Positions 646 through 21,485 of a stretch of 32,000 nt of DNA are shown here, piece after piece. Positions within the stretch are counted from its first letter, which is position 1, and the number at the start of each line of letters is the position of its first letter. The stretch lies in contig NZ_CP065936.1 of NCBI RefSeq assembly GCF_003367075.2, forward strand, positions 3,180,001 to 3,212,000, written 5' to 3'. The stretch is from Cylindrospermopsis raciborskii Cr2010. GTDB lineage: Bacteria > Cyanobacteriota > Cyanobacteriia > Cyanobacteriales > Nostocaceae. The notes beneath the pieces are model-generated. The model was given only the letters and a program-made list of their open reading frames with translations. It was not told the origin of the DNA and did not search any database. A program made the position numbers and the translations under genes.

Positions 646-1254
646 TTATTGGATCAGATCCGGGAAAACAATTTCCTCATAAAACTCCTGGATCGGCAAA
701 CTCAAGCTAATGCTTTTTAGCTCCACCCGATCACCTGGGCGATCGCTCAGAATTAACCAGTCACCTGTCTCATTTTTGTGATAAATATCAATTGCGATTT
801 CGTCAGAGCTGGCTAATACGTAATCAATCAAGTTGGGATTACGTCTGTACTTTTCAAACTTATTACCACGACTATATGCCTCAGTACCGCTCGATAGAAC
901 TTCAACGATTAAACAGGGATAGGTAATATAGAGGGAATGCTCCCGATCTCGATTGTCGCAAGTTACACTCAAATCTGGATAAGTATAGTTAGAAGTTCCA
1001 AGGATATTAACCTTTAGGTCTGAGTTAAAAACTTGACATGTACTTCCTCGCAGATGAGACCGAATTAATAATAAAAAATTAATTGCGATCGCACTGTGAT
1101 TTTGTGTGCCACCACTCATTGCATATACGCGACCATCGATTAGCTCGTGCTTTTCTAACTGCTGTTCTTCCCAGCAAAAATACTCTTCAGGTGTAAAAAA
1201 CTGGTCTTGTTCTTTGACTGCAATCATAGGAATCATCTGAACTAAAATTGACAT
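646..1254 (-). CDS. Uma2-family (DUF820) restriction-endonuclease-fold protein
   Basis: 202-aa ORF. The pattern EL(I)DG..Y.MSGGT..HS.I..N...PDLSV...IVEVLS..T...D...K...Y is typical of the Uma2/DUF820 PD-(D/E)xK family, which is highly expanded in cyanobacteria. Confidence 0.75.
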   Translation of the reverse strand: MSILVQMIPMIAVKEQDQFFTPEEYFCWEEQQLEKHELIDGRVYAMSGGTQNHSAIAINFLLLIRSHLRGSTCQVFNSDLKVNILGTSNYTYPDLSVTCDNRDREHSLYITYPCLIVEVLSSGTEAYSRGNKFEKYRRNPNLIDYVLASSDEIAIDIYHKNETGDWLILSDRPGDRVELKSISLSLPIQEFYEEIVFPDLIQ

Positions 1255-1281: not shown

Positions 1282-1582
1282 TTACTCCTGCTCAAAGGCC
1301 TGACTGTTAAATTTGAGGGTGCGGCAATTTTCTGTGACAGTGCGCACCACATCATCAGGTACACCATCGGGAATGTCTGCTTCAATTTCTAATACTATCC
1401 TAACTTTCGCATCTTTTAAGCTGGTTAGGTGCTGAATGATTTCATTGGCGATCGCAGGAGCATCGCGATTAATTCGTAAGGGGTCAATCTCTACTGTGCC
1501 ATGAAATCTCTTGAGCTGGGGTTTTGTTTCTCTGGTTCTCTCGGTTGGGGTGGGTTCTTGGGTGGGTTGGATCGGTTTTTTA
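1282..1582 (-). pseudogene. C-terminal fragment (~97 codons) of the HEPN-DUF499 ATPase, cut off by the IS1 insertion
   Basis: Deleting 1583-2333 and one copy of the 8-bp duplication rejoins the 1013-aa ORF in frame: ...SRSESTSKK|PIQPTQEPTPTERTRETKPQLKRFHGTVEIDPLRINRD...RTVTENCRTLKFNSQAFEQE*. The first ~31 codons of the 128-aa track ORF (1282..1668) are read from IS sequence. Confidence 0.85.
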
Positions 1583-1621
1583 GGCGTTGCATAATAGAGG
1601 TATGAATTGAGGTAATCTACT

Positions 1622-1912
1622 GTGCATTGTCCAAACTGCGGGTCTTCCAAAATCAGAAAGAATGGCAAACGTCGAGGTAAACAAAATCACATTTGTGTTG
1701 ATTGTGGTCGTCAATTTATCGATGTCTATAGTCCACCTAAAGGCTATTCAGAAGAAGTTAAACAAAGTTGCCTGCGCTCTTATGTTAACGGTATGGGATT
1801 TAGAGCAATTGAACGCGATAAAGGCGTTCATCATACAACTATTATTTACTGGCTAAAACAAATTGGTTCCATACTTCCAGATGCTCCACCAGGAAACACC
1901 CTTGGTAGGTGA
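1622..1912 (+). CDS. insA: IS1-family transposase N-terminal part (InsA-like: Zn finger + HTH)
   Basis: MHCPNCGSSKIRKNGKRRGKQNHICVDCGRQF... gives a CxxC...CxxC zinc finger followed by an HTH (GMGFRAIERDKGVHHTTIIYWLKQ), as in IS1 InsA. Confidence 0.8.
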   Translation: MHCPNCGSSKIRKNGKRRGKQNHICVDCGRQFIDVYSPPKGYSEEVKQSCLRSYVNGMGFRAIERDKGVHHTTIIYWLKQIGSILPDAPPGNTLGR

Positions 1913-2309
1913 GCTTGATGAGTTGGAGACCTTTGTGGGATCAAAAAAAAACAAAATATGGTTGTGGACAGCAGTAAATCACTTCCGTAAAAATATCCTG
2001 GCTTGGGTTGTGGGAGACCACAGCTCACAAGCATTTCAACCTTTGTGGGACATCGTTAAACTCTGGCAATGCTTTTTTTATGTTACTGATGGGTGGAGGG
2101 TTTATCCGAGTTTTATTCAGCCAGAGGATCATATTGTGAGCAAAACATATATGACTAGGGTAGAGGGTGAAAATACACGTTTACGTCACTACTTAGCGCG
2201 ACTACATAGAAAAACGCTATGCTATTCAAAATCTGTAGATATGCTTAGGTATTCAATTAAATTATTACTTCACTATTTAAAGTATGAAGTAATACCCGCG
2301 TTTAGTTGA
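1863..2309 (+). CDS. insB: IS1-family transposase catalytic part (InsB-like DDE domain), in a different frame from insA
   Basis: ...GELDELETFVGSKKNKIWLWTAVN...VTDGWRVYPSFI...SKTYMTRVEGENTRLRHYLARLHRKTLCYSKS matches IS1 InsB conservation. The frame is offset +1 relative to insA. Confidence 0.8.
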   Translation: MVPYFQMLHQETPLVGELDELETFVGSKKNKIWLWTAVNHFRKNILAWVVGDHSSQAFQPLWDIVKLWQCFFYVTDGWRVYPSFIQPEDHIVSKTYMTRVEGENTRLRHYLARLHRKTLCYSKSVDMLRYSIKLLLHYLKYEVIPAFS

Positions 2310-2310
2310 T

Positions 2311-5300
2311 TCATCCCGCAAATATGCAACGCCGTTTTTTACTGGTGCTTTCACTTCTACTGGGTGAGGTAAGTTCTTTGACTTGCTCCTCTTCTAGCTG
2401 TTTTGTCGCTATTTCGGGTTTTACAATCAGGTTTTCACTGCTGATGCTGGGGTTTATGTTATGCAATACTACTAGGTTTTTATATTTCTGTTTGCTCTCT
2501 TCCCACCCCTGTGCATAACCAAAGTGATTCTGTATGTCTATTTTTTGTACTCCGTTTTTTACTGCTTCTAATAGCACTTCTGGGTTCTTTAATCGGGGTA
2601 GATATACGTATTGGGCTAAGTATTCCCACAGCTGTTTGAGATCTATGTGGTTGGTGTCTCTCCATAGGTATTTGTCTAGTGCTTCCATTCTTAGGGTGTT
2701 GCTGGAATATTCTGTAATCAGTTGTCCATCGTTTACTAGTTGGCGACTAGCTCTTAGTATGGGAGAACTCTCTCCTGGTATTCGTTCGCAGTTAATCTCT
2801 ATCGGTTCGTGGGGATTTGGTTGCTCAGGTGAAATTAACCATTGATAGGTCTGGTTCAAAATTGTTTTTACATATTTTTCTGATTGTTCTTTCTGAGCTG
2901 TGGCTTGTTTGGTCTGTGAAACATTTAGGTTTAATGTGTCTTTGTCATTCAATATGGAATCCCATGCTAGATACTGGGCAACATTCTTGTTTAAATTTTC
3001 TATGTTGTCTTCCTCCGCAGCAACAAATACTAGGGTGTTTTTATAATAGCGGCGGCTGGTTCCTCTATGATTCAGAACGTCTTCTATCCATTCTATAGCA
3101 CTGCTATTTTTTTTAGCTTTATTGTGCTGGAGTTCGGGACTAAGAACTACAAGTCTCACTCCTAGGTTAGGATCGTCGGGTATGTCGCTGCTGGAGTCTG
3201 GAGCAGTATGAATGGCTGTAAATTCACCCCGCTCTTTGTCGCTTTTTAATCTTCTAATTATTTCTTCTGTGACTTTGTATAGTTCCTCTAAAAATTGGTT
3301 GGTTCTATCCTGTGCTGTACGGGTAACGTTGGGTTGATTAGAGATCCAGTAGCGGTTACCATCAATATACAAGTAGGTAGCTCTATCTGTTAATCTTCTA
3401 AGAGCATCTACAAAGGTGGCTACTACTTCCCCTGGTTGGACACAGCCAAGTTTTATCCGCTGTTCTTCTAATCCTATGTTGGCGGCCTGTTGAATGGGCG
3501 CTGAGCCTAGGTATATGGTGCGTGCAACTCTCCGACAAGCAGAGTAACGACCAATGGGGGTGTTTTGCCTGTCTATCTCCAGAGGAAGGGAGTTTATTCC
3601 ATCTACATCTTTTTCGATGATGGGAACCCAGTTGTCATCCAGGTATCTTGTTAGTTCTGACTGAACTTGAGCATCATCCATGGGAATTTGACCTGGCATG
3701 ATCAGTAAACCTTTATCTTCTCTTTCCCACAGAGAATGGATTACTTTGGCCATTAGACGCAATACTCCCCTAGTTCGCTGAAATTTATCCAGAGTTGACC
3801 ATTCTGAATAAAGGCGATCAAATATTTCTGGGTGTATGGGGTAAGACTCTTTTAGGCGGTTTTGATATTTGGCTTCTGCGCATTCACTAGGAAACTCTTG
3901 CTTTTGCTGGCGATACATATCATAGAATGCCCGAATCACCCTATCTCTTTCCACAAACAGGTCTGGGTTTGTAGTAGTCTCAAATAGGCGACGACGGACT
4001 ATTTCCAAGCTCTCTTCCGCACTGGATGGTCTCCAGGGAGATTCTACCCTACCCATAGCATTTTTTAATCTGTCCAGGGCTTGTTTGCCCCTATCTCCAC
4101 CTATTTCGTTATCAGAGGAGGAGGGGATGCTCACTACTAACAGGGTGCGGTCGGCATTTTTTGCTGATTCGCTCAGGGTCTGGGCAAAGGTAAAGTGGGT
4201 ATCAAAACTCCCTCCTGGGAGATCTGGTTGTTCATGAAGTTGGCGAGCGTAAGCAACCCACTCATCTATTAATATCATGCAGGGAGCATAGCGGTTAAAT
4301 AGGTGTTTGAGAGTATCACCAGGATTAGTAGCTGTTTGGTCGCTGTCTCTCACCATTTCATAACCCTCTTTCCCTCCCAGTTGCCAGGCTATTTCTCCCC
4401 ACAGGGTACGTATTTGGGTGCCATCTGATTTTTTATAAATGGTACCAGGTGAGATTTTGTTACCCACTATGACTACTGTGTTGACGTTTTGGGGTAGTTC
4501 CTTGATGGATGTTTCTTCAAATACTGGATCTAGTCCGGGTAGTTCGTGGGGTTGTAGTCCAAAAAACATGTGATAGAGGGCAAGTATAGCATGGGTTTTG
4601 CCTCCTCCAAAGTTGGTCTGTAGTTCGATTACTGGGTCTCCTCCTTTGCCTGTCAAGCGAATGAGGGCATTAGTAAGGAGTTTTTTGAGTCCTTCCGTCA
4701 AGTAGGTGCGTCGGAAAAATTCTGTAGGGAGGCGGTATTCATCAGAACCTTCATCTTGATATACTTGCCACAGGTCGGCGGCAAATTCTGCTTGTTGGTA
4801 GCGACCTGATGCTACGTCGGGGTGGGGTGTGGCAATTTCTCTCCATGGTTTTAACCATGATGATGGTTGTCCTTCTGTGGGTGCTTCTGCTTTGCGTCTT
4901 GTTTCTCTTTTGGCTTGTTCTTCATACCGGGTTCTGAGGATTTCTTGTTTTTGCTTTTCTACTTCTTCGGTATCCCCAGAAACTGCATTTAGCAGTCTGG
5001 TAATACTGTCAAAAGCGCGGTAGGTGTCGTCTAGGGAAAATGAACTGTTATGGGCCCAGCTGTTGCGGGTCTCTCTTAGTTCACTCACTAATGAGCGATC
5101 GCTTCTCCCCAGGGTTTTTTTAAAAACGTCGTTCCAATATTCCCACATAACAATAAGTAGGGCTGATACGTCTTCTTGAAAGATAGTATCTGCTGTTTTT
5201 CGGGTTGTGTAGCTTTCCGGGAGGCAATTTATGGCCATAGTAGTCCATTGTTTACCATAGGTTTGTTTCATTTCTCTGTCCACAAAGGGGTAGAGTCCTT

Positions 5301-5352
5301 CTTTAAGGGAATCAAGTGCCCTTCCTACACGTTCCCGATTACTTATTGCCAT
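2311..5352 (-). CDS. Swt1-type HEPN domain fused to a DUF499 (COG1483-type) P-loop ATPase, 3'-truncated by IS1; the native gene reconstructs to ~1103 aa
   Basis: The N-terminal HEPN has an Rx4H motif (SELRETRNSWAHNSSF). The DUF499 core reads WREIATPHPDVASGRYQQAEFAADLWQV...RTYLTEGL, with Walker A LQTNFGGGKTHAILALYH and Walker B CMILIDEW. The last 7 codons (RRCIFAG*) are read from the IS1 end. Confidence 0.9.
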   Translation of the reverse strand: MAISNRERVGRALDSLKEGLYPFVDREMKQTYGKQWTTMAINCLPESYTTRKTADTIFQEDVSALLIVMWEYWNDVFKKTLGRSDRSLVSELRETRNSWAHNSSFSLDDTYRAFDSITRLLNAVSGDTEEVEKQKQEILRTRYEEQAKRETRRKAEAPTEGQPSSWLKPWREIATPHPDVASGRYQQAEFAADLWQVYQDEGSDEYRLPTEFFRRTYLTEGLKKLLTNALIRLTGKGGDPVIELQTNFGGGKTHAILALYHMFFGLQPHELPGLDPVFEETSIKELPQNVNTVVIVGNKISPGTIYKKSDGTQIRTLWGEIAWQLGGKEGYEMVRDSDQTATNPGDTLKHLFNRYAPCMILIDEWVAYARQLHEQPDLPGGSFDTHFTFAQTLSESAKNADRTLLVVSIPSSSDNEIGGDRGKQALDRLKNAMGRVESPWRPSSAEESLEIVRRRLFETTTNPDLFVERDRVIRAFYDMYRQQKQEFPSECAEAKYQNRLKESYPIHPEIFDRLYSEWSTLDKFQRTRGVLRLMAKVIHSLWEREDKGLLIMPGQIPMDDAQVQSELTRYLDDNWVPIIEKDVDGINSLPLEIDRQNTPIGRYSACRRVARTIYLGSAPIQQAANIGLEEQRIKLGCVQPGEVVATFVDALRRLTDRATYLYIDGNRYWISNQPNVTRTAQDRTNQFLEELYKVTEEIIRRLKSDKERGEFTAIHTAPDSSSDIPDDPNLGVRLVVLSPELQHNKAKKNSSAIEWIEDVLNHRGTSRRYYKNTLVFVAAEEDNIENLNKNVAQYLAWDSILNDKDTLNLNVSQTKQATAQKEQSEKYVKTILNQTYQWLISPEQPNPHEPIEINCERIPGESSPILRASRQLVNDGQLITEYSSNTLRMEALDKYLWRDTNHIDLKQLWEYLAQYVYLPRLKNPEVLLEAVKNGVQKIDIQNHFGYAQGWEESKQKYKNLVVLHNINPSISSENLIVKPEIATKQLEEEQVKELTSPSRSESTSKKRRCIFAG

Positions 5353-5425
5353 GAGTTTTTTATATATGTTATTAATGCAGTTATTAACTATAATGCACGA
5401 TTTTGGTCATTAAAAACAATGGCGC

Positions 5426-8086
5426 TCATAAAGAAAGACTAATTTGGTGATCACTAGGGGTTCTATATTGGTTGGCTAATCGGGTAATCTCCGTCCAGGA
5501 TATGACTAGACTATTATAGGCTATAGCCTCTTGATTCCATCCCTTGCGATCGCACAGGTTATACAATCTATAGGCCAGGTCTCGGGCGAGGTAGGGACTG
5601 GTTTCTAGTTGGGCTAGGAGTTTGGCTGCACCGACTTCTCCTTGAAATAGGAGTGAGTGGATAAGATGTTGAGTGATTTCCCAGATTGGCATGCGGGTAT
5701 CTTTTTGTGGTTTCCAGTCTGTAGGGAGGTCTTCTCGTTTGAGGAGTCTGACCTTACCCGCTTTAGCTTCTAAAATGCCTGATTCTACTAGACCTTGAAC
5801 GCTGGTGTTTTTAGCTTTAGAAAGGGTTTCTGCATCACCATAGGGACCATCAGAGAATTGGTGTTGCTCAAACCAGGTGAGGGCCCAGCGGGTATCGCTA
5901 TCGAATTCGCCTTCTTGTTCGGTGAGGAATTCGTCCAGAATTTGGTTAATAGATTGGAGTGCGCTGCGTACGCGTAGGGACTTGCCATCAGGTTCTAATA
6001 CAGCAGCATATTTGGAGAAGATAGCCATACCGGGGCCTATGCTGGCTTGGGCTAGGTCAACGGGGGCGATGTTGCCTTGTTGTAGGAGTTTGAGGGCTGG
6101 GGGAAGGTCTGTTTTGAGTTCTTTGAGGAATTGGCGGCGGGTGGTTTTGGGTGCGTCTTGGGGTCGGGGGCGACATACGAGAACTATGGAGGAGGCAAGG
6201 GCGTTAGAATTTTGTCCTCTGATACGATTACCTAATTCTGTTCGTAGTGGCCATGTTCCATTAATACTAAAACTAGATTGGATTAATCCTTGTAAAATAG
6301 TTTCCCATCCTGTAGAATAGATGTTTTGTTCATTGTCTGTTTCGGTTTGTTTTAACGCATAATATATTGTTATAGGATAATCTTTGTCATTAATTTGATT
6401 GATACGTTGAAAAACTTGAATAAGACTATCTTCAAAAAATTGTTTTGCCTTATCTTTAGTTTCGTGTCGAAAGTGATCTGCCACCATTTCTTGAGCTTTC
6501 GGAACTAATACAGTATTAAAGATGTCTGGATAGATAGAACCTATAGATTGGCGCAGCCAAACATAAAAGAAATCAGATAGATCTGCATAGGGAATAGCGT
6601 CATAGTAAGGTGGATCTGTGGAGATGAATTTGGGTGTATTGTTGCTAGATTGTGATGTGGTGGCATCCAGCTGAATAGCTTTTCCCTGGGGAAAACAAGA
6701 AGACTTTTCAATAACCTTCCAAATCCAATCAATAGCACCATTAAAATTGCCGCTGGAATCACTCATAGGATTAGCTTCAGCAAAATCCCAAGTCATGGGA
6801 ATAGCTTGTCTTGTAAAGACATGACTCATTTTTTCCCCACTTATGTGCCAAGTGCAAATACTACTCCAATAATCTGAGCTTTTGTCAATAGCGATTGCCA
6901 AATAGGTAGCTACTGCATCTGCATAAGCGGTAGCTCCCATACCCCCATCATTGAGAGAGAGATGATCATCAGTTTTTCCTGCTGCTATGGCGTGGTCTTT
7001 TATCTTCTCTCTTGCTTCCTGTACTAGGTCGCTGAAGGTGGTCAGGGCTACAAGTTGGCGCGAGGTGAAGAGATCGCTATGTTTTGTCATGCCATAACGA
7101 GGTGTTGCCATGTATTGGGAATGGGTTGAAAGTTCTGTCTCTGGTTTCCAACTTGGTTCGACTAAAAGAGCTATTTGTTCATGTTCATCACTAGGAGAGA
7201 CATAAATTCTTCCACTTTTTCCTTCAGCTACAATGGCCATTAATTGAGCATTCATCCTTCCTGCTTTCCCTTCGCTACGGATATGATCCAATGTCACGGG
7301 TGTTTTACAGGCTATACAAACTGCTCCTTTTCTACTTACAGTCCCCTCTGGTGCTTCCCCCTTTCCTGTGTTTACCTCAAATCTTATTTTGGGAGTTAGG
7401 GCCCCTTGCTGCTGCTCAATCAAAGGTTCAACCCAAGCCTCTTTCCCTTTCTTGGTTGAAAGATGAAACTTATTAACCAATGGCATTTGACAACCACATG
7501 CTGGGTTAGGACATTTGACGGTTCTAGCCCACACCCAGGCAATAACTGTGGCTTCTCCGCCTCCCTGCTCTTTTGCTAGCTTGACCTTGGGATACAAATG
7601 CCCAATTCGTTTAAAGGCTTCATCCCGCATCCACTGTCCATAATATCTGATATCTTCTGCTAATCCCTGGGCACCATACCATTTTCCTGTGGGGGTGGCT
7701 GATGGATTAACTGGGCGTTGGTCTCTAAATTTGGGTGGAATCTCAATGAGTGCTTTGGTAATTAATACTGCTACTGGGTTGAGGTCACTACCATGGGACT
7801 GAAGTCCTAATCGCTGGGCTTCTAGGGGTATGGATCCTCCTCCGCAAAAAGGGTCGTATGCGGGGGGGGCATTTTTAGCGATGTAGTCTCTTATGGCATC
7901 AGGTTTAGTCGGGGGTTGGTCTCCACGTTCCCAAGCTAGGCAGCGGGTGATTTCTTTTTGAGCATCTATTAATACTGTTGATTTAGGATTATTAATGTCA
8001 TCCCAGGATACTAATCCTTTTACAGTCTCTTTTATATTTCCTTTTTTATCTTCTTTAATTTCAATTCTTCGTGACATACTCCACAC
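5426..8086 (-). CDS. DUF1156-family Zn-ribbon DNA methyltransferase (N6-A/N4-C type, COG1743-like) lacking the N-terminal DUF1156 domain
   Basis: SAM-binding motif YDPFCGGGSIPLEAQRLGLQSHGSDLNPVAVLI. Catalytic motif FISTDPPYYDAIPYADLSDFFYVWLR. Cys clusters CPNPACGC...CIACKTP. The conserved N-terminal WWARRP-type DUF1156 segment expected in this family is absent. The track's GTG start at 8086 lies inside the IS200/IS605 end hairpin, so it is fortuitous. Confidence 0.85.
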   Translation of the reverse strand: MWSMSRRIEIKEDKKGNIKETVKGLVSWDDINNPKSTVLIDAQKEITRCLAWERGDQPPTKPDAIRDYIAKNAPPAYDPFCGGGSIPLEAQRLGLQSHGSDLNPVAVLITKALIEIPPKFRDQRPVNPSATPTGKWYGAQGLAEDIRYYGQWMRDEAFKRIGHLYPKVKLAKEQGGGEATVIAWVWARTVKCPNPACGCQMPLVNKFHLSTKKGKEAWVEPLIEQQQGALTPKIRFEVNTGKGEAPEGTVSRKGAVCIACKTPVTLDHIRSEGKAGRMNAQLMAIVAEGKSGRIYVSPSDEHEQIALLVEPSWKPETELSTHSQYMATPRYGMTKHSDLFTSRQLVALTTFSDLVQEAREKIKDHAIAAGKTDDHLSLNDGGMGATAYADAVATYLAIAIDKSSDYWSSICTWHISGEKMSHVFTRQAIPMTWDFAEANPMSDSSGNFNGAIDWIWKVIEKSSCFPQGKAIQLDATTSQSSNNTPKFISTDPPYYDAIPYADLSDFFYVWLRQSIGSIYPDIFNTVLVPKAQEMVADHFRHETKDKAKQFFEDSLIQVFQRINQINDKDYPITIYYALKQTETDNEQNIYSTGWETILQGLIQSSFSINGTWPLRTELGNRIRGQNSNALASSIVLVCRPRPQDAPKTTRRQFLKELKTDLPPALKLLQQGNIAPVDLAQASIGPGMAIFSKYAAVLEPDGKSLRVRSALQSINQILDEFLTEQEGEFDSDTRWALTWFEQHQFSDGPYGDAETLSKAKNTSVQGLVESGILEAKAGKVRLLKREDLPTDWKPQKDTRMPIWEITQHLIHSLLFQGEVGAAKLLAQLETSPYLARDLAYRLYNLCDRKGWNQEAIAYNSLVISWTEITRLANQYRTPSDHQISLSL

Positions 8087-8125
8087 ACTCCCTTACAGGT
8101 GAGTGTGGGCTTCTCAACGACTCTT

Positions 8126-9349
8126 CTATGAAGACATTGATTGAGCTTTGAGGGCGTGTGTCCCACGCGCCTTTATATTTATAGCCGCATTTAGATCCCG
8201 GCACAAGCTGACCTTGCAATTAGGGCAATTGTGCCTTCTTTCTGATAGCGGCTTTTTGACTTTGTGTCCACAGTTAGAACATTCTTGGTTCGTACCGTTT
8301 GGATTTACAGCTATCACTTTCAAGCCAGCATTCTCGGCTTTGTTTGAAAGTATGGTGATGAACTGTCCCCAACCAGCATCGTTAATACTTTTAGCCAATC
8401 TTGTTTTAGCAAGTCCTTTTATATTTAATTTTTCAACAGCTACTACGTCATACTTTTTGAGTAGATTATTAGCTGTTTTGAATTGGAAATCTTTTCTAGT
8501 ATCAACAACTTTCTTGTGTAGAATACCCAGTTTTTTAATCGCTTTTTTACGGCGATTAGAACCTCTCTTCCGACGAGAGACACGACGTTGCGCAGATTTT
8601 AACTTGCGTTCAGCTTGGCGTAGAAACTTAGGTGCGGCAATTCTTTCACCGTCTGAGGTGACAATAAAATCAATCAATCCGACATCAATACCAACAATAT
8701 TATTAGCATTAAAATCAGGCTTAATTGTGGGAACTGTTTTGTCGTCAAGACTTAGAGTTACATAATACCCGTCTGCTTTTTTAGTGACAGATACAGTTTT
8801 AATTTGAAACCCGTCGGGAACTTGACGATGAACAATTACTTTAACATCGCCTATTTTTGATAGCGTAATCTTGTTATTGACAAAGTGATGTTGTTTGAAT
8901 TGAGGAAAAGTAAATGTTTTATATTGTCCCGTACTTTTAAATCTAGGTCTACCAGACTTTTTGCTGTTGCTATCACCTTTTAACCATCGGTCAAAAGCTA
9001 ACTCAACTTTCTTTGCGACTTCCTGTAGCACCTGAGAATGAATCTCTTTGTACCAAGGACGGTCTTTTTTAAGTTGAGTTAATGATGCTTTTTGGTTGTA
9101 ATAATTAGGTTGCTCTTTGAGTTCTGGTAAATGACAAACGAATATGGAACATCTATTAATAGGGGAACGATTTTGTTCATACCAATCAAACCGTTGAGCC
9201 AGCAAATAATTGTATTGATAGCGCAGCATTTCTAGCGTTTTATCAATCTTTTCTGCTTGCTGTTTTGTCGGTTTAATTTTGTATTGATAGGATATCCGCA
9301 CCTGATTATCGCCTTTTTCTGATGTTGGTGTTACTATTCTAGTATACAC
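8126..9349 (-). CDS. tnpB: TnpB (IS200/IS605 OrfB, RuvC-like RNA-guided nuclease family)
   Basis: Typical N-terminus (R)ISYQYKIKPTKQQAEKIDKTLEMLRYQYNYLL. RuvC-type acidic residues are in context: GIDVGLIDFIV, VVAVEKLNIKGL, CRDLNAAINI. Zn ribbon CSNCGHKV...CPNCKV. The true start may be the internal GTG at 9301. Confidence 0.9.
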   Translation of the reverse strand: MYTRIVTPTSEKGDNQVRISYQYKIKPTKQQAEKIDKTLEMLRYQYNYLLAQRFDWYEQNRSPINRCSIFVCHLPELKEQPNYYNQKASLTQLKKDRPWYKEIHSQVLQEVAKKVELAFDRWLKGDSNSKKSGRPRFKSTGQYKTFTFPQFKQHHFVNNKITLSKIGDVKVIVHRQVPDGFQIKTVSVTKKADGYYVTLSLDDKTVPTIKPDFNANNIVGIDVGLIDFIVTSDGERIAAPKFLRQAERKLKSAQRRVSRRKRGSNRRKKAIKKLGILHKKVVDTRKDFQFKTANNLLKKYDVVAVEKLNIKGLAKTRLAKSINDAGWGQFITILSNKAENAGLKVIAVNPNGTNQECSNCGHKVKKPLSERRHNCPNCKVSLCRDLNAAINIKARGTHALKAQSMSS

Positions 9350-9377
9350 TAATTATGAGAAATATGGCAAGAAGCTT

Positions 9378-9512
9378 ATGAAAAATGATTTTGTTTCAAA
9401 GGGAAGGTCAGTCAGTGACTTAAAAGTACATCTAGTTTTAACGACAAAATATAGGCGCAAAGCCTTTACTGGAGATATGTTACAGCGATTACATATCATC
9501 CTAGCAGAATAA
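9378..9512 (+). pseudogene. tnpA: Remnant (44 codons) of the IS200/IS605 Y1 transposase TnpA
   Basis: My translation is MKNDFVSKGRSVSDLKVHLVLTTKYRRKAFTGDMLQRLHIILAE*. It matches the TnpA N-terminus (HxVxxxKYRRK) but stops before the HUH and catalytic Tyr regions. It is divergent from tnpB with a 28-bp spacer. Confidence 0.7.
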
Positions 9513-9575
9513 GACAGTGTTCGTTTTCTCCATGTTCCCTATTAGTCAGGGAACTGTCGTCAACTCACGCGCCAT

Positions 9576-11618
9576 TCATCCCACGCTCACTCTTAGGAGC
9601 GTGGGGCTTCTGTCGGCAAAGCTAATGGCTTCAATGAGCAGTTCTCGCAACTCTTTGCCGGCGATCGCTTTGCCCAAGACGTCAAAAACCTGTCCTCCTA
9701 GGGCTTTTTGTTCGGCTTCTAGTTTTTCTAGGAGGGTGCGATAAACGTCTCCTTCTCGGGTTTCATGGGCGACCAGGTTCCAGAGATGACATACTTCTGT
9801 TTGTCCAATACGATGAATGCGACCAAATCTTTGTTCTAGGCGGTTGGGATTCCAGGGGAGGTCGTAGTTAACCATCAGATGGGCTCTTTGTAGGTTTATA
9901 CCTTCACCTGCTGCGTCTGTGGCAAGGAGGACTTGTACTTCTTTATCTTGTTTGAAGTTTTCTTCTGCTTTTTTGCGGTCTTCTCTTCCCATAGCTCCAT
10001 GTATGGTGACTACGGTTTCTGAGTTACCTAGGAGGTTGGCAATTTTATCTTTGAGGTAGTTAAGGGTGTCTCTATGTTCAGTGAAGACGACTATTTTACG
10101 TCGATATCCTCCTTGATCAAACATTTCTGCTTTATCTTGGAGTAGATGGGAGAATTCTTCCCATTTGCGGTCTTTCCCGCTTAGACGCACGCTGTTGGCT
10201 AGGTCTTCTAGGTTTTTTAGTTGGCTGATTTCAAATTCTAGTTCAGCAATTGTACGTGCTGCTGTGGCTTGATCTACTACTTCTTCTATGGTGGATTCCC
10301 GCTCTGTGCTATCGCTATTTTCTAAGTCATCATCTATGTCTTCTTGGTCAATAATACTACCATTTTCTACTTCTAGGTTTTTTCCTCGTTTGAGTAGTTG
10401 TTCTTCTCTGACTCGTTTTGCTAGTCTTTCTCGTCGTCGTTTCAAGGACTGATAGATGGCTTCTGGGGATGAGGCTAAACGGCGTTGTAGGATGGTGAGG
10501 GCAAAGCCGACTGTTCCTTTTCTGCCATTATTAGAGAGCATTTCTGCTCGGTTAAATTCTTCTCGGACGTAATCTGTTACTTTGCTGTAAAGAAGAGCTT
10601 CTTGGTCGGAGAGTGGATAACTAACTGTATGGGCAATTCTTTCTGGAAACAGTGGTTTGCCATCAAACTTGAGTAATTCTTCCTTAACCATACGACGCAT
10701 CAGGTCGGATGTGTCTGATACATGAACACCATCCCGGAATCGCCCCTCAAAGCGATCTCCATCCAGGAGGGCAAGGAATAATTGAAAATCTTCTTCTTTG
10801 CCATTATGGGGTGTGGCGGTCATAAGGAGAAAATGGCGGGTGAGGGTGGAGAGGAGTTTGCCCAATTTGTAGCGTTTGGTTTCTCGAATTTCTCCACCAA
10901 AAAACGAGGCGGACATTTTGTGAGCTTCATCGCAAATGACCAGATCCCAATCTGTGTGCTGGAGTTTTTTTTGTAAGTCATCATTGCGACTGAGTTTATC
11001 TAGTCTGGCAATAACCAAGTTCATTTCATCAAGAGCATTACCAGTTATAGCTGCTTCTATACGTTCATTAGTGAGGATTTGGAAATGGAGGTGAAATTTG
11101 TGATGTAGTTCATCTTGCCATTGGACCGCTAAACTTCCTGGACAGACAATTAAACAACGGGCTAGATCCCCACGAATTAGTAGTTCTCTGATTAATAGCC
11201 CTGCCATAATAGTTTTTCCGGCGCCTGGGTCATCAGCAAGAAGGAAGCGGAGAGGTTGGCGATTGAGCATTTCACTGTAAACAGCAGTGATTTGATGGGG
11301 TAAAGGTTCTACTAGTGATGTGTGAACGGCTAGAAGTGGGTCAAATAGATAAGCTAGGTTAATGCGATGAGCTTCAGAAACTAGGCACAATGTTTCCCCG
11401 TCACCATCGAAGCTCCAGGGTTTTCCCTCGTTTACAATTTGTAGGCTTTCTTCTCTATCTCGGAAAAGTAGTTCTGTGTAAGGACTACCGTGGATATCTT
11501 TGTAGGTTAATTCAACTGTGTCTGTTCCGAACCACTTGGCATCAATGACTGTAACACCTTGACCAGGTAGAATGCCATTTATTATTGACCCTTGTTTTAG
11601 CTCTTCTAGTTTTATCAA
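9576..11618 (-). CDS. SNF2/COG0553-type helicase, copy A: native codons 1-665, C-terminus replaced by 15 IS-derived codons
   Basis: Walker A LLADDPGAGKTIMAG, DEAH box LVICDEAHKM, motif VI NPNRLEQRFGRIHRIGQ. Native sequence ends at 9622 (..LRELLIEAI). The tail SFADRSPTLLRVSVG* is read from the IS200/IS605 left end. Confidence 0.9.
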   Translation of the reverse strand: MIKLEELKQGSIINGILPGQGVTVIDAKWFGTDTVELTYKDIHGSPYTELLFRDREESLQIVNEGKPWSFDGDGETLCLVSEAHRINLAYLFDPLLAVHTSLVEPLPHQITAVYSEMLNRQPLRFLLADDPGAGKTIMAGLLIRELLIRGDLARCLIVCPGSLAVQWQDELHHKFHLHFQILTNERIEAAITGNALDEMNLVIARLDKLSRNDDLQKKLQHTDWDLVICDEAHKMSASFFGGEIRETKRYKLGKLLSTLTRHFLLMTATPHNGKEEDFQLFLALLDGDRFEGRFRDGVHVSDTSDLMRRMVKEELLKFDGKPLFPERIAHTVSYPLSDQEALLYSKVTDYVREEFNRAEMLSNNGRKGTVGFALTILQRRLASSPEAIYQSLKRRRERLAKRVREEQLLKRGKNLEVENGSIIDQEDIDDDLENSDSTERESTIEEVVDQATAARTIAELEFEISQLKNLEDLANSVRLSGKDRKWEEFSHLLQDKAEMFDQGGYRRKIVVFTEHRDTLNYLKDKIANLLGNSETVVTIHGAMGREDRKKAEENFKQDKEVQVLLATDAAGEGINLQRAHLMVNYDLPWNPNRLEQRFGRIHRIGQTEVCHLWNLVAHETREGDVYRTLLEKLEAEQKALGGQVFDVLGKAIAGKELRELLIEAISFADRSPTLLRVSVG
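9622..9889. repeat. 268-bp block identical to 14995-15262 (helicase codons ~577-665)
   Basis: Base-by-base comparison by eye found no differences. Confidence 0.9.
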
Positions 11619-12145: not shown

Positions 12146-12475
12146 ATGGATATTACCTTCGCTGACAGCAAACTTCAGAAGCTATGCGAGCAGCAATCGG
12201 TCGCCCAACAGAAACTGGGTCGAACCTGCGCTCGTAAACTTCGCTCTCGCCTCGCTGACCTTCGTGCTGCGGGGTCGGTAAGGGAGCTGGTGTCAGGGCG
12301 GCCGCATCCCTTAAGAGGCGATCGCGCTGGGGAGTTTGCTGTAGATCTAGAAGGTGGGAGACGACTCGTCTTCAAGCCAGCTAGTACTCCTATCCCTATA
12401 AATGAGGATCGAAGTATTGATTGGTCGAAGGTCACTCGCGTCTGTATCGTTTTTATAGGGGACTACCATGACTGA
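12146..12475 (+). CDS. higB: HigB-like (plasmid-maintenance-killer / RelE-superfamily) toxin
   Basis: 109 aa. The pattern ...RLADLRAAGSVRELVSGRPHPLRGDRAGEFAVDLEGGRRLVFKP...VCIVFIGDYH matches the HigB/killer family (..L...P...HPLKGDR.G.wsv.v....R..F......v....DYH). It overlaps the downstream gene by 8 nt (ATGACTGA). Confidence 0.7.
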   Translation: MDITFADSKLQKLCEQQSVAQQKLGRTCARKLRSRLADLRAAGSVRELVSGRPHPLRGDRAGEFAVDLEGGRRLVFKPASTPIPINEDRSIDWSKVTRVCIVFIGDYHD

Positions 12476-13613
12476 AATTACACGCCCCTTCACCCCTGAT
12501 TGGGTCTCTCCTCCTGGTGATACTATTCTGGATCTGCTAGAGGAACGCGATTGGACGCAGGGCCAACTGTCAGAGCGTCTGGGGTATACAACAAAGCACA
12601 TAAGCCAACTGATTAACGGCAAAGCACCGATTAATGAGGAGACTGCGCTTAAGTTAGAACGGGTACTAGGAAGTACCGCTGGATTCTGGCTTAACCGGGA
12701 GGCTCAGTACCGCGCTCAACTTGCCAAGATTGAGGAACAAGAGCGTTTGCAAACCTGGACTCCCTGGTTAGATGAATTACCCGTAAAGGAGCTGATGCAG
12801 CAAGGAGTAATCCCAAAGCGTCGAATTGATGCTAAGAGTAAACCTGGCATTGTCAGGGAACTACTACACTTCTTTGGTGTGGCATCACCAGATGACTGGC
12901 AAACCTTTTACGTTGGGATGGAGTGTGCCTTTCGTCGGACGCGAGAGGCTCAAAGTGATGTGGGAGCGATCGCCGCCTGGATTCGGCAAGGGGAAATTCT
13001 TGCGGAGCGGCTCAACTGCCCGAAGTACAGTAAGCCAAAATTCGAGAAGGCGGTGCGAGAGATTCGCACGCTCACCATGTTAGAACCCGAAGAGTTTGAT
13101 CCAGAGATGCGGAAGCTCTGCTGGGAAGCCGGAGTGGTATTTGTGATTGTCCCGTCAATTCCAAGGGCGCACGTAAGCGGGATGGCCCGGTGGTTAAATC
13201 CGCACAAGGCACTGATTCAGCTATCGCTCTATGGCAAGCAGAACGACCGCTTCTGGTTTACCTTCTTCCACGAAGCAGCTCACATTCTTCTTCACGACAA
13301 AAAGGATATCTTCCTAGATGAGTGGGATGGAGGAGCAGTAGTGCAGTCAAAGCAAGAGGAAGAAGCAAACTGCTGGTCACGGGAGTTTTTAATTCCGCTA
13401 CATCACGAGTTAGAACTACCTAATTTGAAGTCGAAGGAGGCTGTAATTGACTTTGCCAAGCGGATTGGAATTCATCCCGGTATTGTGATAGGAAGGCTTC
13501 AGCACGATAAAGTGATTGCTCCTACTTGGATGAACGGTTTGAAGGTAAGTTTTCGGTTCAAAGGGAATTGTGCCTCCCTACTTAACTCATCCCAAAAGAG
13601 CTTGTCCTGGTGA
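12468..13613 (+). CDS. HigA-type XRE HTH antitoxin fused to an ImmA/IrrE (COG2856) Zn-metallopeptidase domain
   Basis: N-terminal HTH: DWTQGQLSERLGYTTKHISQLINGKAPINEETALKLERVLG..FWLN. C-terminal HExxH: FWFTFFHEAAHILLHD. The start is translationally coupled to the toxin stop. Confidence 0.75.
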   Translation: MTEITRPFTPDWVSPPGDTILDLLEERDWTQGQLSERLGYTTKHISQLINGKAPINEETALKLERVLGSTAGFWLNREAQYRAQLAKIEEQERLQTWTPWLDELPVKELMQQGVIPKRRIDAKSKPGIVRELLHFFGVASPDDWQTFYVGMECAFRRTREAQSDVGAIAAWIRQGEILAERLNCPKYSKPKFEKAVREIRTLTMLEPEEFDPEMRKLCWEAGVVFVIVPSIPRAHVSGMARWLNPHKALIQLSLYGKQNDRFWFTFFHEAAHILLHDKKDIFLDEWDGGAVVQSKQEEEANCWSREFLIPLHHELELPNLKSKEAVIDFAKRIGIHPGIVIGRLQHDKVIAPTWMNGLKVSFRFKGNCASLLNSSQKSLSW

Positions 13614-13671
13614 TGTTTATTTCCTCTTTCTTTCATTTGGTTTCATCCCAGCTAAAAGCTTACTCCCCTAC

Positions 13672-13900
13672 GATCGCCCGTAGGGAGTGTAATGCGATCT
13701 CGCGTAGCGAGTGCTTCGCAATCGCCCATAGGGGGTGTAATGCAATCTCCCCTCAACACATTCAGATTTTTCCCTACTTAATTCTAGGGAGTGCTTCGCA
13801 ATCGCCCTTCAACACCTTCAAAATTTTCCCTTGAGAAGGAACTAGGGGGATAATCTCTAAGAGCGATCGCCCAGAGGGAGTGCTGCGCAATCGCCGACCA
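13672..13900. repeat. Cluster of short dispersed cyanobacterial repeats built around HIP1
   Basis: Three copies of (G)GAGTGCT(T/G)CGCAATCGCC, two of GATCGCCC(G/A)TAGGG(A/G)GTGTAATGC(G/A)ATCTC and two of CTTCAACAC-like ...TTCA(A/G)A(T)TTTTCCCT. Related motifs occur at 11701-11726 (inverted) and 17965-17980. Confidence 0.7.
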
Positions 13901-14294: not shown

Positions 14295-15759
14295 CTAAAC
14301 CATACCAGTCTCTTCTAAAACCAACTGCTCCAGTAATTGTTTTTCTTGTTGCAGGTCTTTCAGGCGTTGGTTAAGACGGCTTTCTAGTTCGTCCGCTCTG
14401 GCTTGGGCTTTGTTAGAATTTAATCTGGCATTAGGTTTGCCTGCTTCTTCTTGTAAACGCAGTTGGCTGGCTCGATAATCCCAATAGTTGATTTCTTTGG
14501 TTAATCGGTCTTTTACTGCTTTCATGGTCTTTTCTATTAATTCTTCTTTTCTCTGTTTTATCTCTTGCAGGTGTGCTACAACTAGATTGGTAATGGCATA
14601 TTCTATGGCTTTCTTTTCTATATTATTTTCTATTTGTAGTGAATCTAGTATGGGATCTACTAGGGATTTTTCATTCTCTTTTAAGGGTCTATAGTTCAAA
14701 TAGGGTGCATAGCCTGCATTTTTTACTTGGTTTTCTTTGCTGTCTTCATTTTGCTTGTTCACTCTCAGGGGAATTTCTACATACTGCATGCGCTTTGAGA
14801 CTACTCTTCTTTTTCCATCCCTATTTAATCGGGCATCTTGAATGGCATGTTCTAAATATACTAGGGCGCGAATCTCTTCTGTATAATCATTTTCATCAAT
14901 TAGTATGGCTCCTCTTTTGAGTAGTTGCTGTTGATCTAGTTTCTCTTTTACAACTTCGTTTAGTCTGGCTTTTACCTCTGGGCGATCGCCATATCTAATG
15001 GCTTCAATGAGCAGTTCTCGCAACTCTTTGCCGGCGATCGCTTTGCCCAAGACGTCAAAAACCTGTCCTCCTAGGGCTTTTTGTTCGGCTTCTAGTTTTT
15101 CTAGGAGGGTGCGATAAACGTCTCCTTCTCGGGTTTCATGGGCGACCAGGTTCCAGAGATGACATACTTCTGTTTGTCCAATACGATGAATGCGACCAAA
15201 TCTTTGTTCTAGGCGGTTGGGATTCCAGGGGAGGTCGTAGTTAACCATCAGATGGGCTCTTTTGGACTGCTAAACTTCCTGGACAGACGATTAAACAACG
15301 GGCTAGATCCCCACGAATTAGTAGTTCTCTGATTAATAGCCCTGCCATAATGGTTTTTCCTGCGCCTGGGTCATCAGCAAGAAGGAAGCGGAGAGGTTGG
15401 CGATTGAGCATTTCACTGTAAACAGCAGTGATTTGATGGGGTAAAGGTTCTACTAGTGATGTGTGAACGGCTAGAAGTGGGTCAAATAGATAAGCTAGGT
15501 TAATGCGATGAGCTTCAGAAACTAGGCACAATGTTTCCCCATCACCATCAAAGCTCCAGGGTTTTCCCTCGTTTACAATTTGTAGGCTTTCTTCTCTATC
15601 TCGGAAAAGTAGTTCTGTGTAAGGACTACCGTGGATATCTTTGTAGGTTAATTCAACTGTGTCTGTTCCGAACCACTTGGCATCAATGACTGTAACACCT
15701 TGACCAGGTAGAATGCCATTTATTATTGACCCTTGTTTTAGCTCTTCTAGTTTTATCAA
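14295..15759 (-). pseudogene. SNF2-type helicase, copy B: codons 1-166 joined out of frame to codons 577-898 by a 1231-bp internal deletion; it carries the C-terminus missing from copy A
   Basis: Track ORFs 15241..15759 (172 aa) and 14295..15248 (317 aa) match copy A for residues 1-166 and 582-665. The junction at 15262 corresponds to copy-A positions 9889|11121, a deletion of 9890-11120 (1231 bp, not a multiple of 3). Past LIEAI it continues RYGDRPEVKARLNEV... for 233 more codons. Confidence 0.9.
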
Positions 15760-15837
15760 ATTTAGTCTCTCTCTTGCGATCGCATTTCTATATTTTTATC
15801 CTCCAGTCCCTATTCTAACACAGTATTTTTTGGGCGA
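14995..15837. repeat. Copy-B counterpart of the two duplicated helicase blocks
   Basis: 14995-15262 equals 9622-9889 (offset 5373). 15262-15837 equals 11121-11696 (offset 4141). The two blocks share the single T at 15262. Confidence 0.9.
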
Positions 15838-16086: not shown

Positions 16087-16383
16087 GTGATGAAAACCTT
16101 TGATGAACTCCGACAACTTTTATCACTACAAAAGCAATCTCTCTGTGAAATTTATCAAATTACAGAAATTGGGATCTTTGGTTCTTATGCTAGGGGTGAG
16201 GAGACGGAAGCAAGTGATGTTGATATTTTGGTTGATTATGAAACAGCGCCTACTTTTATTATGTTAGTGGAACTTAGGGATTATTTAAGTCAGTTGTTTG
16301 GCTTGAAGGTGGATGTTGTTACTAAGAACGGGCTTAAACCCCGGATTCGTGAGCGTGTTTTGGCTGAGGCTATTTATATATGA
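16087..16383 (+). CDS. mntA: MNT-type nucleotidyltransferase (type VII TA antitoxin, MntA-like)
   Basis: GIFGSYARGEETEASDVDILVDY is the GSxxRG...DxD minimal nucleotidyltransferase signature. The 4-nt overlap (ATGA) with the downstream DUF86 gene is the classic pairing. Confidence 0.85.
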   Translation: MMKTFDELRQLLSLQKQSLCEIYQITEIGIFGSYARGEETEASDVDILVDYETAPTFIMLVELRDYLSQLFGLKVDVVTKNGLKPRIRERVLAEAIYI

Positions 16384-16721
16384 AGCGTAGTTATACGGAA
16401 TTTTTACAGGATATTTTAGACGCTATTACAGAAATTGGTTTGTTTGTAAATGGTGTTAGTTATGAGGCTTTTGAGTCCAACAGAGAGAAAACTTTGGCGG
16501 TGGTGAAGTTATTAGAAGTTATTGGGGAAGCTGTTAAAAAAATTCCTAATGAACGCCGTGAACAGTATCCAGATATACCTTGGAAATCTATAGCAGGTAT
16601 GAAGGATATGCTTGTACATGAATATTGGCAGGTTGATGTGGCGGTTGTCTGGGCTACGGTTCAGCTTTCTTTACCATTATTAAAAGCAGTTGTAGTGATG
16701 GAATTGGAGGAAAAACCATAG
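16380..16721 (+). CDS. hepT: HepT-like DUF86 HEPN protein (type VII TA toxin family)
   Basis: DUF86 layout: FLQDILDAI..I......YEAFESNREKTLAVVKLLEVIGEAVKKIP......YPDIPWKSIAGMKDMLVHEYWQVD. The usual R-N-x3-H-x-Y motif reads K-D-M-L-V-H-E-Y here. Confidence 0.8.
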   Translation: MKRSYTEFLQDILDAITEIGLFVNGVSYEAFESNREKTLAVVKLLEVIGEAVKKIPNERREQYPDIPWKSIAGMKDMLVHEYWQVDVAVVWATVQLSLPLLKAVVVMELEEKP

Positions 16722-17046: not shown

Positions 17047-17619
17047 ATGATTATGCCAGAATCAGATTCACCAGGACTTTTTCGGGTAGAAATTGAAGAA
17101 ATAGAAGTTAAAGAAAATTACTCGCAAGATTTACCAAATTTTCTCTCAGGTAAATTAACCTTGCACCACAATTCTCAATCACAAAATTTACCAGAAAATA
17201 GACAACAAGCTTTAAGCCTTTTACTCTATAATTTAACTTGGTTAATGTTTCGTTTAGGAGGGGTTGGACAAGGCGCAAGACGACCCTGTTATAAGAGAAG
17301 TAGCAATCCATATTGGCGCGGTTCCACTTTAATTCCCCCAGATACAACTGGCGAATTTTGGAATTTACCTGATACTCTATTAGAATTTCAAGAATTATTC
17401 CGAACCCGACTCAAAGACTTTTATAGAGGTTTACGTACTTTTAGTCTGATAGCATTTGACTATAATGAGTTAAAAACCGTTCAGACTACAAGTAGAGAAT
17501 GGATTGAAACTGTGTTTGGTGCAACCACTGGATTACGGCGAGATTTTGTTCAGCAATTAACAAAAGATCCTTCTAATTGTTTACAAATTTTTCCCCTAAC
17601 CACATCTAATAGGACTTAA
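17047..17619 (+). pseudogene. Possible fragment of a CRISPR type III RAMP protein (Cmr1-like G-rich loop)
   Basis: 190-aa ORF containing WLMFRLGGVGQGARRPCYKRSSNPYWRGS, which resembles the RAMP glycine-rich loop (GGxGxxxxRRxx). It is too short for a complete RAMP protein and lies 130 bp downstream of the CRISPR-like repeats. Confidence 0.3.
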
Positions 17620-20925: not shown

Positions 20926-20999
20926 TACTCAAGTTAATTAACAAGTTAACTGATTCTAAGATATCTTAGCATTGGTATTTTAACTTAATTTGGGTGATT

Positions 21000-21416
21000 A
21001 TGGCAAGATTGCTTTTTGGAGGGATTTTAACTTTATTAGTCTTGTCTATAACTGCATGTAGTAGTCTTGTATTAATTCCAACTTATGAGTTAGTTTTCAA
21101 GGCGGTCAGTATGCAGCTAGAACAAGCTCAGCAGGAGCTAGAGCAAAAACTAGATTTGGATTTTGAAGGGTTCACTATTGAACATCTGGTAATTAATCAG
21201 CAACAAGCTCTCACAATTGAAAATTTGCCGGGTTATCATGTGGAAGGGGTTTATGATTTGAAGGTTAAATTACCAAGTAGACAAATCACCCAAACGCACA
21301 ATCATTTTAATATCTATTTACAAATTCAGAAGGAAGGTAAAAGCTGGCGACTACTCATACCTGAGAAAAGTGGGGAAAACCAACCATTAGTTTGGCGTGG
21401 TTATTTAATTATATGA
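21000..21416 (+). CDS. Small hypothetical lipoprotein
   Basis: Signal peptide with lipobox LSITAC|SS. The track ORF starts at GTG 20994, but ATG 21000 is more likely. Confidence 0.55.
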   Translation: MARLLFGGILTLLVLSITACSSLVLIPTYELVFKAVSMQLEQAQQELEQKLDLDFEGFTIEHLVINQQQALTIENLPGYHVEGVYDLKVKLPSRQITQTHNHFNIYLQIQKEGKSWRLLIPEKSGENQPLVWRGYLII

Positions 21417-21426
21417 GTTATTTCTG

Positions 21427-21457: not shown

Positions 21458-21485
21458 GGTTTCACCTCTACCGTTTGAGGAATTC

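Follow-up and report, generated by a model that had tools for sequence, protein, structure and literature searches.

Hma is a defence operon with a SNF2 helicase (HmaA), a DNA methyltransferase (HmaB) and a DUF499 ATPase (HmaC), and here we analyse what appears to be a damaged copy of it in a stretch of 32,000 nucleotides from Cylindrospermopsis raciborskii Cr2010 (contig NZ_CP065936.1, positions 3,180,001 to 3,212,000), referred to as the window and numbered from its first base. Operons of this type have been known since 2013, when a cyanobacterial prototype near Ava_2192 was reported, in which the SNF2 helicase is fused to a restriction endonuclease (REase) domain (Anantharaman et al., PMC3710099), and the name was given by Payne et al. 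(2021, PMC8565338), who counted 1638 instances in 26 phyla. HmaA of Halomonas meridiana alone protects E. coli from T4, and its NOV_C domain, of the PD-(D/E)xK type (D1084/E1104/K1106/E1121), is a Mn2+-dependent nickase needed for the defence (Liu et al. 2024, PMC11232893). The family was then reclassified as Type-1 DUF499-centred bacteriophage exclusion (BREX)-related (BR) systems, present in 2446 taxa, with a HEPN fusion in 1370 taxa and the helicase-nuclease fusion in 79%; the HEPN domain was proposed, as a hypothesis, to be a back-up suicide effector, and the BR methyltransferase and ATPase are regarded as homologous to components of Type-3 BREX (the BrxHII/PglXI system) (Rakesh & Krishnan 2026, PMC12839542). 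In the reconstituted MANTIS/Gao_RL system, the methyltransferase MtsC is loaded by the DUF499 ATPase MtsA together with MtsB and hemimethylates sites that are asymmetric and 6 bp long, and DNA without the modification is restricted by a helicase-PLD nuclease (Shaw et al. 2026 preprint, 10.64898/2026.09.23.753747). Given these works of 2013, 2021, 2024 and 2026, the statement of an initial annotation of the window, that the mechanism of this kind of module is not established, is outdated.

By its gene families and their order, the operon found at 1282-11618 of the window reads as an already described system, the Hma system of PADLOC, alias Type-1 DUF499-centred BR, in its HEPN-fused form, and we consider, with a probability of about 0.9, that the region is a pseudogenised restriction-like defence operon of this kind. 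Every gene of the window trio is damaged or incomplete. For comparison, two alleles of the same species were used, one from the complete chromosome of C. raciborskii G7 (locus L082) and one from an independent 92-kb metagenome contig (L081). The features of the operon are the following.

9622..11618, minus strand: hmaA copy 1, native codons 1-665, with a Tudor-like N-terminus and the SNF2 motor (PADLOC HmaA, Pfam)
8071..9621, minus strand: insertion sequence (IS) of the IS200/IS605 family, 1551 bp, with tnpB, a Y1 tnpA stub and hairpins (junctions mapped against G7)
9378-9512, plus strand: vestigial Y1 tnpA stub, 43 aa (Y1_Tnp, E 1.5e-6)
8126-9349, minus strand: tnpB, 407 aa (Pfam HTH_OrfB_IS605, OrfB_IS605, Cas12f1-like_TNB)
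5426..8070, minus strand: hmaB with its N-terminus deleted, N6-adenine-type methyltransferase core (PADLOC HmaB)
2334..5352, minus strand: 5' part of hmaC, HEPN_Swt1 and DUF499 AAA+ ATPase (Pfam, PADLOC HmaC)
1583..2333, plus strand: IS1-family element, 751 bp, with inverted repeats, DDE transposase and target-site duplication
1863-2309, plus strand: IS1 DDE transposase open reading frame (ORF) (Pfam DDE_Tnp_IS1, E 5e-27)
1622-1912, plus strand: IS1 zinc-ribbon ORF
1282..1582, minus strand: 3' part of hmaC, the last ~100 codons, C-terminal domain (PADLOC HmaC positions 848-940)

The minus-strand ORFs of this range lie at 9576-11618 (680 aa), 8126-9349 (407 aa), 5426-8086 (886 aa), 2311-5352 (1013 aa) and 1282-1668 (128 aa), and one of 148 aa lies on the plus strand at 1863-2309. 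The 680-aa product matched PADLOC HmaA with E=0 and 1113 bits, in positions 1-677 of the 1176 of the model only, and the 886-aa product matched HmaB with E=0 in positions 83-962 of 967. HmaC was matched in two pieces, by the 1013-aa product (E 7e-301, positions 3-830 of 941) and by the 128-aa fragment (E 1e-23, positions 848-940), in such a way that the partial coverage of all three models agrees with the lesions mapped below. Pfam assigned SNF2-rel_dom and Helicase_C to the 680-aa ORF, and HEPN_Swt1 (E 7e-41) and DUF499 (E 3e-36) to the 1013-aa ORF. The genes follow the order hmaA-hmaB-hmaC on one strand. The initial annotation had described there a co-oriented trio of helicase, methyltransferase and ATPase, and its coordinates, its 73-bp hmaB-hmaC spacer and its motifs were all recovered: DDPGAGKT, DEAH and QRFGRIHRIGQ in the 680-aa ORF, DPFCGGGSIPLEAQRLG and TDPPYY in the 886-aa ORF, and NFGGGKTH and ILIDEW in the 1013-aa ORF. 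The HEPN domain that it saw on the ATPase is the HEPN_Swt1 of Pfam, and its proposal of a defence module with a helicase, a DUF1156-type methylase and a HEPN-DUF499 protein, in a defence-rich island, agrees with the Hma match. It left unmentioned the IS200/IS605 tnpB element that lies inside the range. The profile searches that it suggested recovered DUF499, HEPN_Swt1 and SNF2/Helicase_C; Pfam DUF1156 found no match in the window methyltransferase.

The nature of the damage was revealed by comparison with the G7 operon, which is intact and whose flanks are 99% identical to those of the window. There, hmaA encodes 1206 aa, with NOV_C at 1056-1137, hmaB encodes 958 aa, with DUF1156 at aa 2-73, and hmaC encodes 1103 aa, with HEPN_Swt1 and DUF499, followed by a Uma2 gene. 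A 111-aa DUF6883 gene lies between hmaA and hmaB (L082 9418-9753); it is conserved in the intact operon and absent from the window, and its product gave no match in PADLOC and NCBIfam. At base level, 2486 bp of host DNA of the G7 allele were found exchanged in the window for the 1551-bp IS200/IS605 element. The left junction follows ...GCCATTAG of G7, at window 9622/9621, and the right one follows ...CATTTTAG, with host DNA starting again at window 8070 with GAAGAATTG. The missing DNA encoded HmaA residues 666-1206, the DUF6883 gene and HmaB codons 1-74. Up to the left junction, hmaA copy 1 is 99.06% identical in nucleotides to the G7 allele, and its ORF continues over about 15 IS-encoded codons past 9622 to a stop at 9576, so that the protein ends without the inactive REase, the alpha+beta domain and the active NOV_C nuclease.

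The inserted element has the TnpB domains and the Y1 stub of the IS200/IS605 family, with subterminal hairpins close to both ends and no target duplication. Elements of this family are inserted on the 3' side of a short motif, and in the intact G7 allele each host breakpoint comes after a TTAG (...GCCATTAG and ...CATTTTAG; positions 7737 and 10223 of L082), which is probably the target or transposon-associated motif (TAM) of the window tnpB element. The hmaB orthologues of other genera did not confirm this motif, which was settled with the same-species G7 allele. With its Y1_Tnp reduced to a 43-aa stub, the element is probably non-autonomous. When the window was scanned for Rfam families and tRNAs, nothing matched, leaving neither an omega-RNA family nor an integration-site tRNA to assign. 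The empty site is read straight through by a near-identical partial protein of a close relative (P0003) and by a second hmaA copy in the window. In the simplest model, two TTAG-targeted insertions would have been followed by IS-IS recombination, leaving the 2486-bp deletion.

On the other side of the element, hmaB retains motif I (DPFCGGGS), motif IV (DPPY, in TDPPYY), a Cys4 insert and the C-terminal region, in agreement with the N6-adenine-type core of Hma methyltransferases (motif I FxGxG, motif IV DPPY, a target-recognition-domain insert and a C-terminal region). Its first 74 codons, corresponding to the whole DUF1156 domain, are gone, and the only start options, GTG at 8086 and ATG at 8077, are both located within the right end of the IS. 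The initial annotation was thus right in that the motifs and core (and PADLOC HmaB, E=0) place the gene in the DUF1156 family of methyltransferases, and what it lacks is the DUF1156 domain itself. An 883-aa protein cluster named C. raciborskii is 100% identical to HmaB', and an exact-sequence look-up of the 1013-aa HmaC ORF gave no record. Sequence searches of the PDB gave no matches with HmaB and HmaC, and only generic Snf2/RapA motors with HmaA.

The third gene is broken off after approximately codon 1004 by the IS1-family element. This element has 25-nt imperfect terminal inverted repeats (84% complementary), a DDE_Tnp_IS1 transposase and a perfect 8-bp target-site duplication, GTTTTTTA, at 1575-1582 and 2334-2341, which is present as a single copy in G7. 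Excision in silico of the element and one copy of the duplication produced a continuous ORF of 1103 aa, the length of G7 HmaC, in such a way that the ~1100-aa ATPase of the initial annotation is correct for the restored gene, which in the window is split at 1583-2333. The 5' part encodes HEPN_Swt1 at aa 11-125, with an intact Rx4H motif (RNSWAH, 96-101), and a DUF499 AAA+ ATPase with Walker A GGGKT and Walker B ILIDEW; the gene is therefore of the HEPN-fused DUF499 kind, although IS1-split.

The conservation of the operon was analyzed in relatives found with HmaB, from which 583 were confirmed and 80 loci kept. A SNF2 helicase was present in 50 of the 56 loci whose upstream sequence reaches 6.5 kb or more, and NOV_C was found on all 50 of these helicases. 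DUF499 was present in 52 of the 57 loci with enough downstream sequence (HEPN on 51 of the 52), the DUF1156 N-terminus in 75/75 HmaB homologues, and all three genes in 38 of the 44 loci with both flanks, so that the synteny that had been suggested as a check of the trio was confirmed. The D...EVK...E motif of NOV_C was found in 59/59 hits, and the RNxWAH motif of HEPN in 62/64. PF13020 is found on nearly all full-length HmaA homologues of the protein database (about 1165-1190 aa), and intact Hma orthologues are common in cyanobacteria, this species included. By contrast, no NOV_C-like sequence was detected in the 32-kb window, either hmaA copy included, with low-stringency tblastn giving noise only, and the window has no helicase-fused active PD-(D/E)xK (NOV_C/DUF3883). 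On the basis of these comparisons, the window is best taken as a decayed outlier, not as a nuclease-free variant.

These data modify the main proposal of the initial annotation. Its remark that no DNase signature was visible holds for the three window-encoded Hma proteins, and this is only because the 2486-bp deletion took the nuclease-coding part of hmaA. From that absence it had deduced that HEPN is the only nuclease, with RNA cleavage or abortive infection as the output instead of restriction; as NOV_C is present on 50/50 related helicases and in the G7 allele, that deduction is an artefact of the deletion. It had also named a recognisable DNase domain as a finding that would speak against its model, and NOV_C in the intact orthologues is such a domain.

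Compared with the described systems, the window locus shares with Hma/Type-1 BR the hmaA-hmaB-hmaC order, the SNF2 helicase, the DPPY methyltransferase core and the HEPN_Swt1-DUF499 protein, and differs in lacking HmaA 666-1206, the DUF6883 gene and the HmaB DUF1156, and in its IS1-split hmaC. The Halomonas system has the same three families, with an HmaA that ends in a C-terminal NOV_C after the Snf2 part, whose D/E/K/E set is also found in the cyanobacterial orthologues. In Halomonas, other defence genes lie between the hma genes and no HEPN is annotated on HmaC; this system has the NOV_C nuclease, whereas the window has no Hma nuclease domain.

MANTIS/Gao_RL (Type-2 BR), whose DUF499 AAA+ ATPase is homologous and whose methyltransferase is of the group-alpha DPPY kind, is the best mechanistic template. 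Its effector is the PLD nuclease/SF2 ATPase MtsD, and it requires the DUF3870 protein MtsB, whereas the effector family of the window is Snf2 plus PD-(D/E)xK; no MtsB/DUF3870 was seen in the window, in annotations that included no search aimed at it. Identity with MANTIS was rejected, as the NCBIfam equivalogs gave only 178 bits for DUF499_antiphage (cut-off 1200), 100-108 bits for DUF1156_antiphage (cut-off 1000) and 174-176 bits, in the helicase part only, for phospholipD_antiphage (cut-off 1100), and no PLD domain was present in the Pfam annotation. The SNF2 helicase core is related to DrmD of DISARM and to the helicase of Type-3 BREX (PADLOC DrmD E 1e-124, BrxHI E 8e-103). DISARM was discarded with 361-373 bits for NCBIfam DISARM_DrmD (cut-off 610), and its partners DrmA/B/C (DUF1998 or PLD) were not found among the annotated window ORFs. 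Canonical BREX was discarded as well, with PglXI matched only at E 3.6e-4 and neither PglZ nor BrxL present.

In the intact system, HmaA, a Snf2 motor that would translocate on DNA, nicks or cleaves DNA with its NOV_C domain; this activity and the requirement for it in defence were shown in Halomonas, and its direction against unmodified DNA is what we infer. HmaB, by its motifs I and IV and by its likeness to MtsC of MANTIS, would methylate adenine at N6 and in this way mark the host DNA as self. By analogy with MtsA and BrxC, HmaC, an ORC/Cdc6-like AAA+ protein, would load or license the methyltransferase and would couple the recognition of unmodified DNA to the helicase-nuclease, its N-terminal HEPN being a back-up RNase only in the published hypothesis. 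In the window, a single IS-associated lesion eliminated the nuclease-encoding half of hmaA together with the DUF6883 gene and the DUF1156 of HmaB. A one-step loss of the nuclease with inactivation of the methylase would be non-lethal, avoiding the self-restriction expected from loss of the methylase alone. A later IS1-family insertion disrupted hmaC. The resulting operon would be non-functional as a restriction system, and the locus reads as a relic and not as a functional Hma/Type-1 BR member, because the nuclease fusion and DUF1156, two defining features, both fail in it.

The L081 contig allows the events to be ordered. Its hmaA'/IS/hmaB' junctions are base-identical to those of the window, with 100% identity over window 11351-8352 and at least 99.7% on to 8052, and its hmaC is intact (1101 aa), without the IS1 insertion, so that this insertion is the later event. 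From hmaB' to hmaC, the alleles of the window, L081 and L082 are mosaics, with identities between 63% and 100% per 300 nt (window 2334-8070), and the closest pair shifts block by block; over hmaA' and the IS, by contrast, the window and L081 agree at ~100%. The most divergent hmaB block (around window 6270-6570) lies immediately downstream of the DPPY motif. This pattern suggests frequent recombination of the specificity-determining parts in the hmaB'-hmaC alleles.

A second hmaA segment was found outside the range of the initial annotation, by tblastn with an intact Microcystis HmaA and by blastn.

14295..15837, minus strand: hmaA copy 2, pseudogene

Its segments 15837-15262 and 15262-14986 correspond with 99% identity to copy 1 at 11696-11121 and 9889-9613, respectively, separated by an internal deletion of 1231 bp whose junction shows 1-2 nt of microhomology. 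True homology with copy 1 stops around 14995 (copy 1 9622), the final 9 bp being a chance extension. From there, copy 2 continues across the IS site and encodes HmaA aa 666-692 and 819-1017, with an additional in-frame loss of ~126 codons, and then meets a stop, ending before NOV_C; its positions 14933-14334 are 98.7% identical to the intact G7 hmaA. G7 has a shorter version of this pseudogene, so that the hmaA duplication is older than the IS events.

Several observations weigh against a simple picture of decay. Beyond the IS lesions, hmaB' and hmaC are free of frameshifts and stops, and the interrupted HmaC retains HEPN, the AAA+ module and most of the downstream domains. The IS-deletion allele is found on two different hmaB-hmaC backgrounds, those of the window and L081, which indicates from the sequences that it lasted long enough to recombine, or spread. 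Translation of hmaB' could start at ATG 8077 through read-through from the co-oriented tnpB. A full-length hmaA may be present elsewhere in the genome, acting in trans, our analysis covering 32 kb. No allele intermediate for the two-IS recombination was found, so that this model stands on deduction. Moreover, the view of how the intact Type-1 system works comes from a single study, on HmaA only, and from analogy with Type-2 and BREX, and methylation by HmaB is itself a prediction.

The explanation that draws most on these points is a remnant with reduced function kept by selection, in which HmaB' and HmaC would form an orphan epigenetic methylation module, or HmaC alone a HEPN-bearing ATPase-RNase for abortive infection. 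The presence of the same deletion allele in two backgrounds with an otherwise intact hmaB' (886/887 aa), the intact hmaC of L081, and the co-oriented tnpB upstream of an ATG at the IS/hmaB junction are consistent with it. We nevertheless consider it quite unlikely, since DUF1156 is kept in all 75 HmaB homologues, and in the Type-2 MtsC an N-terminal loop (aa 37-58), which may or may not be the counterpart of DUF1156, makes the main DNA contact. The window hmaC also carries a further lesion, as expected for a gene free of selection, and recent events, as seen in the 100% identity of hmaA' and the IS between the window and L081, together with allelic recombination, can account for ORFs that are still intact. 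A more specific form, in which the nuclease-less allele (HmaA 1-665, HmaB without DUF1156 and HEPN-DUF499 HmaC) would be a retained derivative without DNA cleavage, either a HEPN-RNase abortive module or a methylation-only switch driven by the tnpB transcript, is very improbable; if it were true, it would be a natural case of a restriction-like BR system turned RNA-targeting or regulatory. Some retained nuclease-independent function of the window operon has, in general terms, an equally low probability, between those of these two proposals.

The remaining explanations have still less in their favour. A nuclease-free restriction-modification-like system, in which methylation marks self and the HEPN RNase is the sole effector through RNA cleavage or abortive infection, would fit the intact Rx4H motif, conserved in 62/64 orthologues, the lack of a DNase domain on the three window Hma proteins, and the suicide role put forward for HEPN (PMC12839542). 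However, that lack is due to the 2486-bp deletion, the same-species intact allele and 50/50 related helicases carry a NOV_C domain that was experimentally required for Hma defence (PMC11232893), and the methylase N-terminus and hmaC are damaged too in the window, so that this model is extremely doubtful for the locus and, for the type of system as such, already refuted. It could also be thought that the truncated genes and the duplicated hmaA 5' end are a repeat-caused assembly artefact, having in mind that IS elements and a pair of hmaA segments with 99% identity occur in the window, and that hmaA of a close relative lies on a contig of 1.8 kb whose two ends are both breaks. The identical junctions in the independent 92-kb L081 contig mean that they are not assembly artefacts, the second hmaA pseudogene is also in the complete G7 chromosome, the two hmaA copies differ by real substitutions (about 1%), and the target-site duplication of the IS1 element is clean, which leaves an artefact with a practically negligible probability. 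A pseudogenised Hma operon is thus the reading that we keep.

The neighbourhood of the operon contains other defence-related genes, listed below.

646-1254, minus strand: Uma2 gene (Pfam 'putative restriction endonuclease' family; PADLOC PDC-S03)
12146-13613, plus strand: ORF of 109 aa overlapping that of a 381-aa HTH_3 and Peptidase_M78 protein (Pfam, PADLOC)
16087-16721, plus strand: MNT/HepT toxin-antitoxin pair, NTP_transf_2 and HepT-like HEPN RNase (MNT is PADLOC PDC-S09)
17047-17619, plus strand: 190-aa ORF with a weak PADLOC Cmr6 match (E 1.6e-4)
19030-31587: ordinary chromosomal genes (uvrC, SpoIIM-like, RDD, thiamine-phosphate synthase, KDPG aldolase, DegT aminotransferase, CutA1, Ap4A phosphorylase)

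The Uma2 gene is co-oriented with hmaC and lies 27 bp downstream. It was rejected as a substitute nuclease of the operon, as its place beside hmaC is particular to the C. raciborskii alleles, and of the 80 other loci 2 have it, at non-equivalent positions. The pair at 12146-13613 lies in the interval between hmaA copies 1 and 2 and shares 99.9% identity with G7; its 381-aa protein resembles the N-terminus of HigA antidotes (47.3 bits, just below the cut-off) and matches PADLOC PD-Lambda-2_B (E 2e-30). The MNT/HepT pair is 99.9% identical to L081, where it adjoins a type III Cas10/Cmr2 gene. The first ~26 nt of the 190-aa ORF and the region upstream align to the start of that Cas10/Cmr2 gene, and by this alignment the ORF could be what is left of a type III CRISPR-Cas locus, possibly the source of the "CRISPR relics" of the initial annotation. 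Short repeats that contain the HIP1-like GCGATCGC cluster at 13650-13900, among them three 23-nt units (13705-13896) that are 80-89 nt apart; these units were rejected as a CRISPR relic, since they are short interspersed repeats rich in GCGATCGC and their spacing is irregular. The island of defence genes and mobile elements stops at about 18-19 kb of the window.

The kind of system found here is already known and experimentally characterised, and its apparent lack of a DNase is gene decay and not new biology, so the locus by itself adds little to the published biology of Hma/Type-1 BR. It serves as a caution that the "missing" nuclease of a defence operon should be compared with intact orthologues before a new mechanism is deduced. 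What it does offer is a natural allelic series within one species, in which the operon is intact in G7, IS-deleted in L081, and IS-deleted with IS1 in hmaC in the window. Methylomes across this series could give the recognition motif of a Type-1 BR system and the need of DUF1156 for methylation. The single deletion of the nuclease and the methylase N-terminus would also illustrate a safe route for the loss of a restriction-like system.

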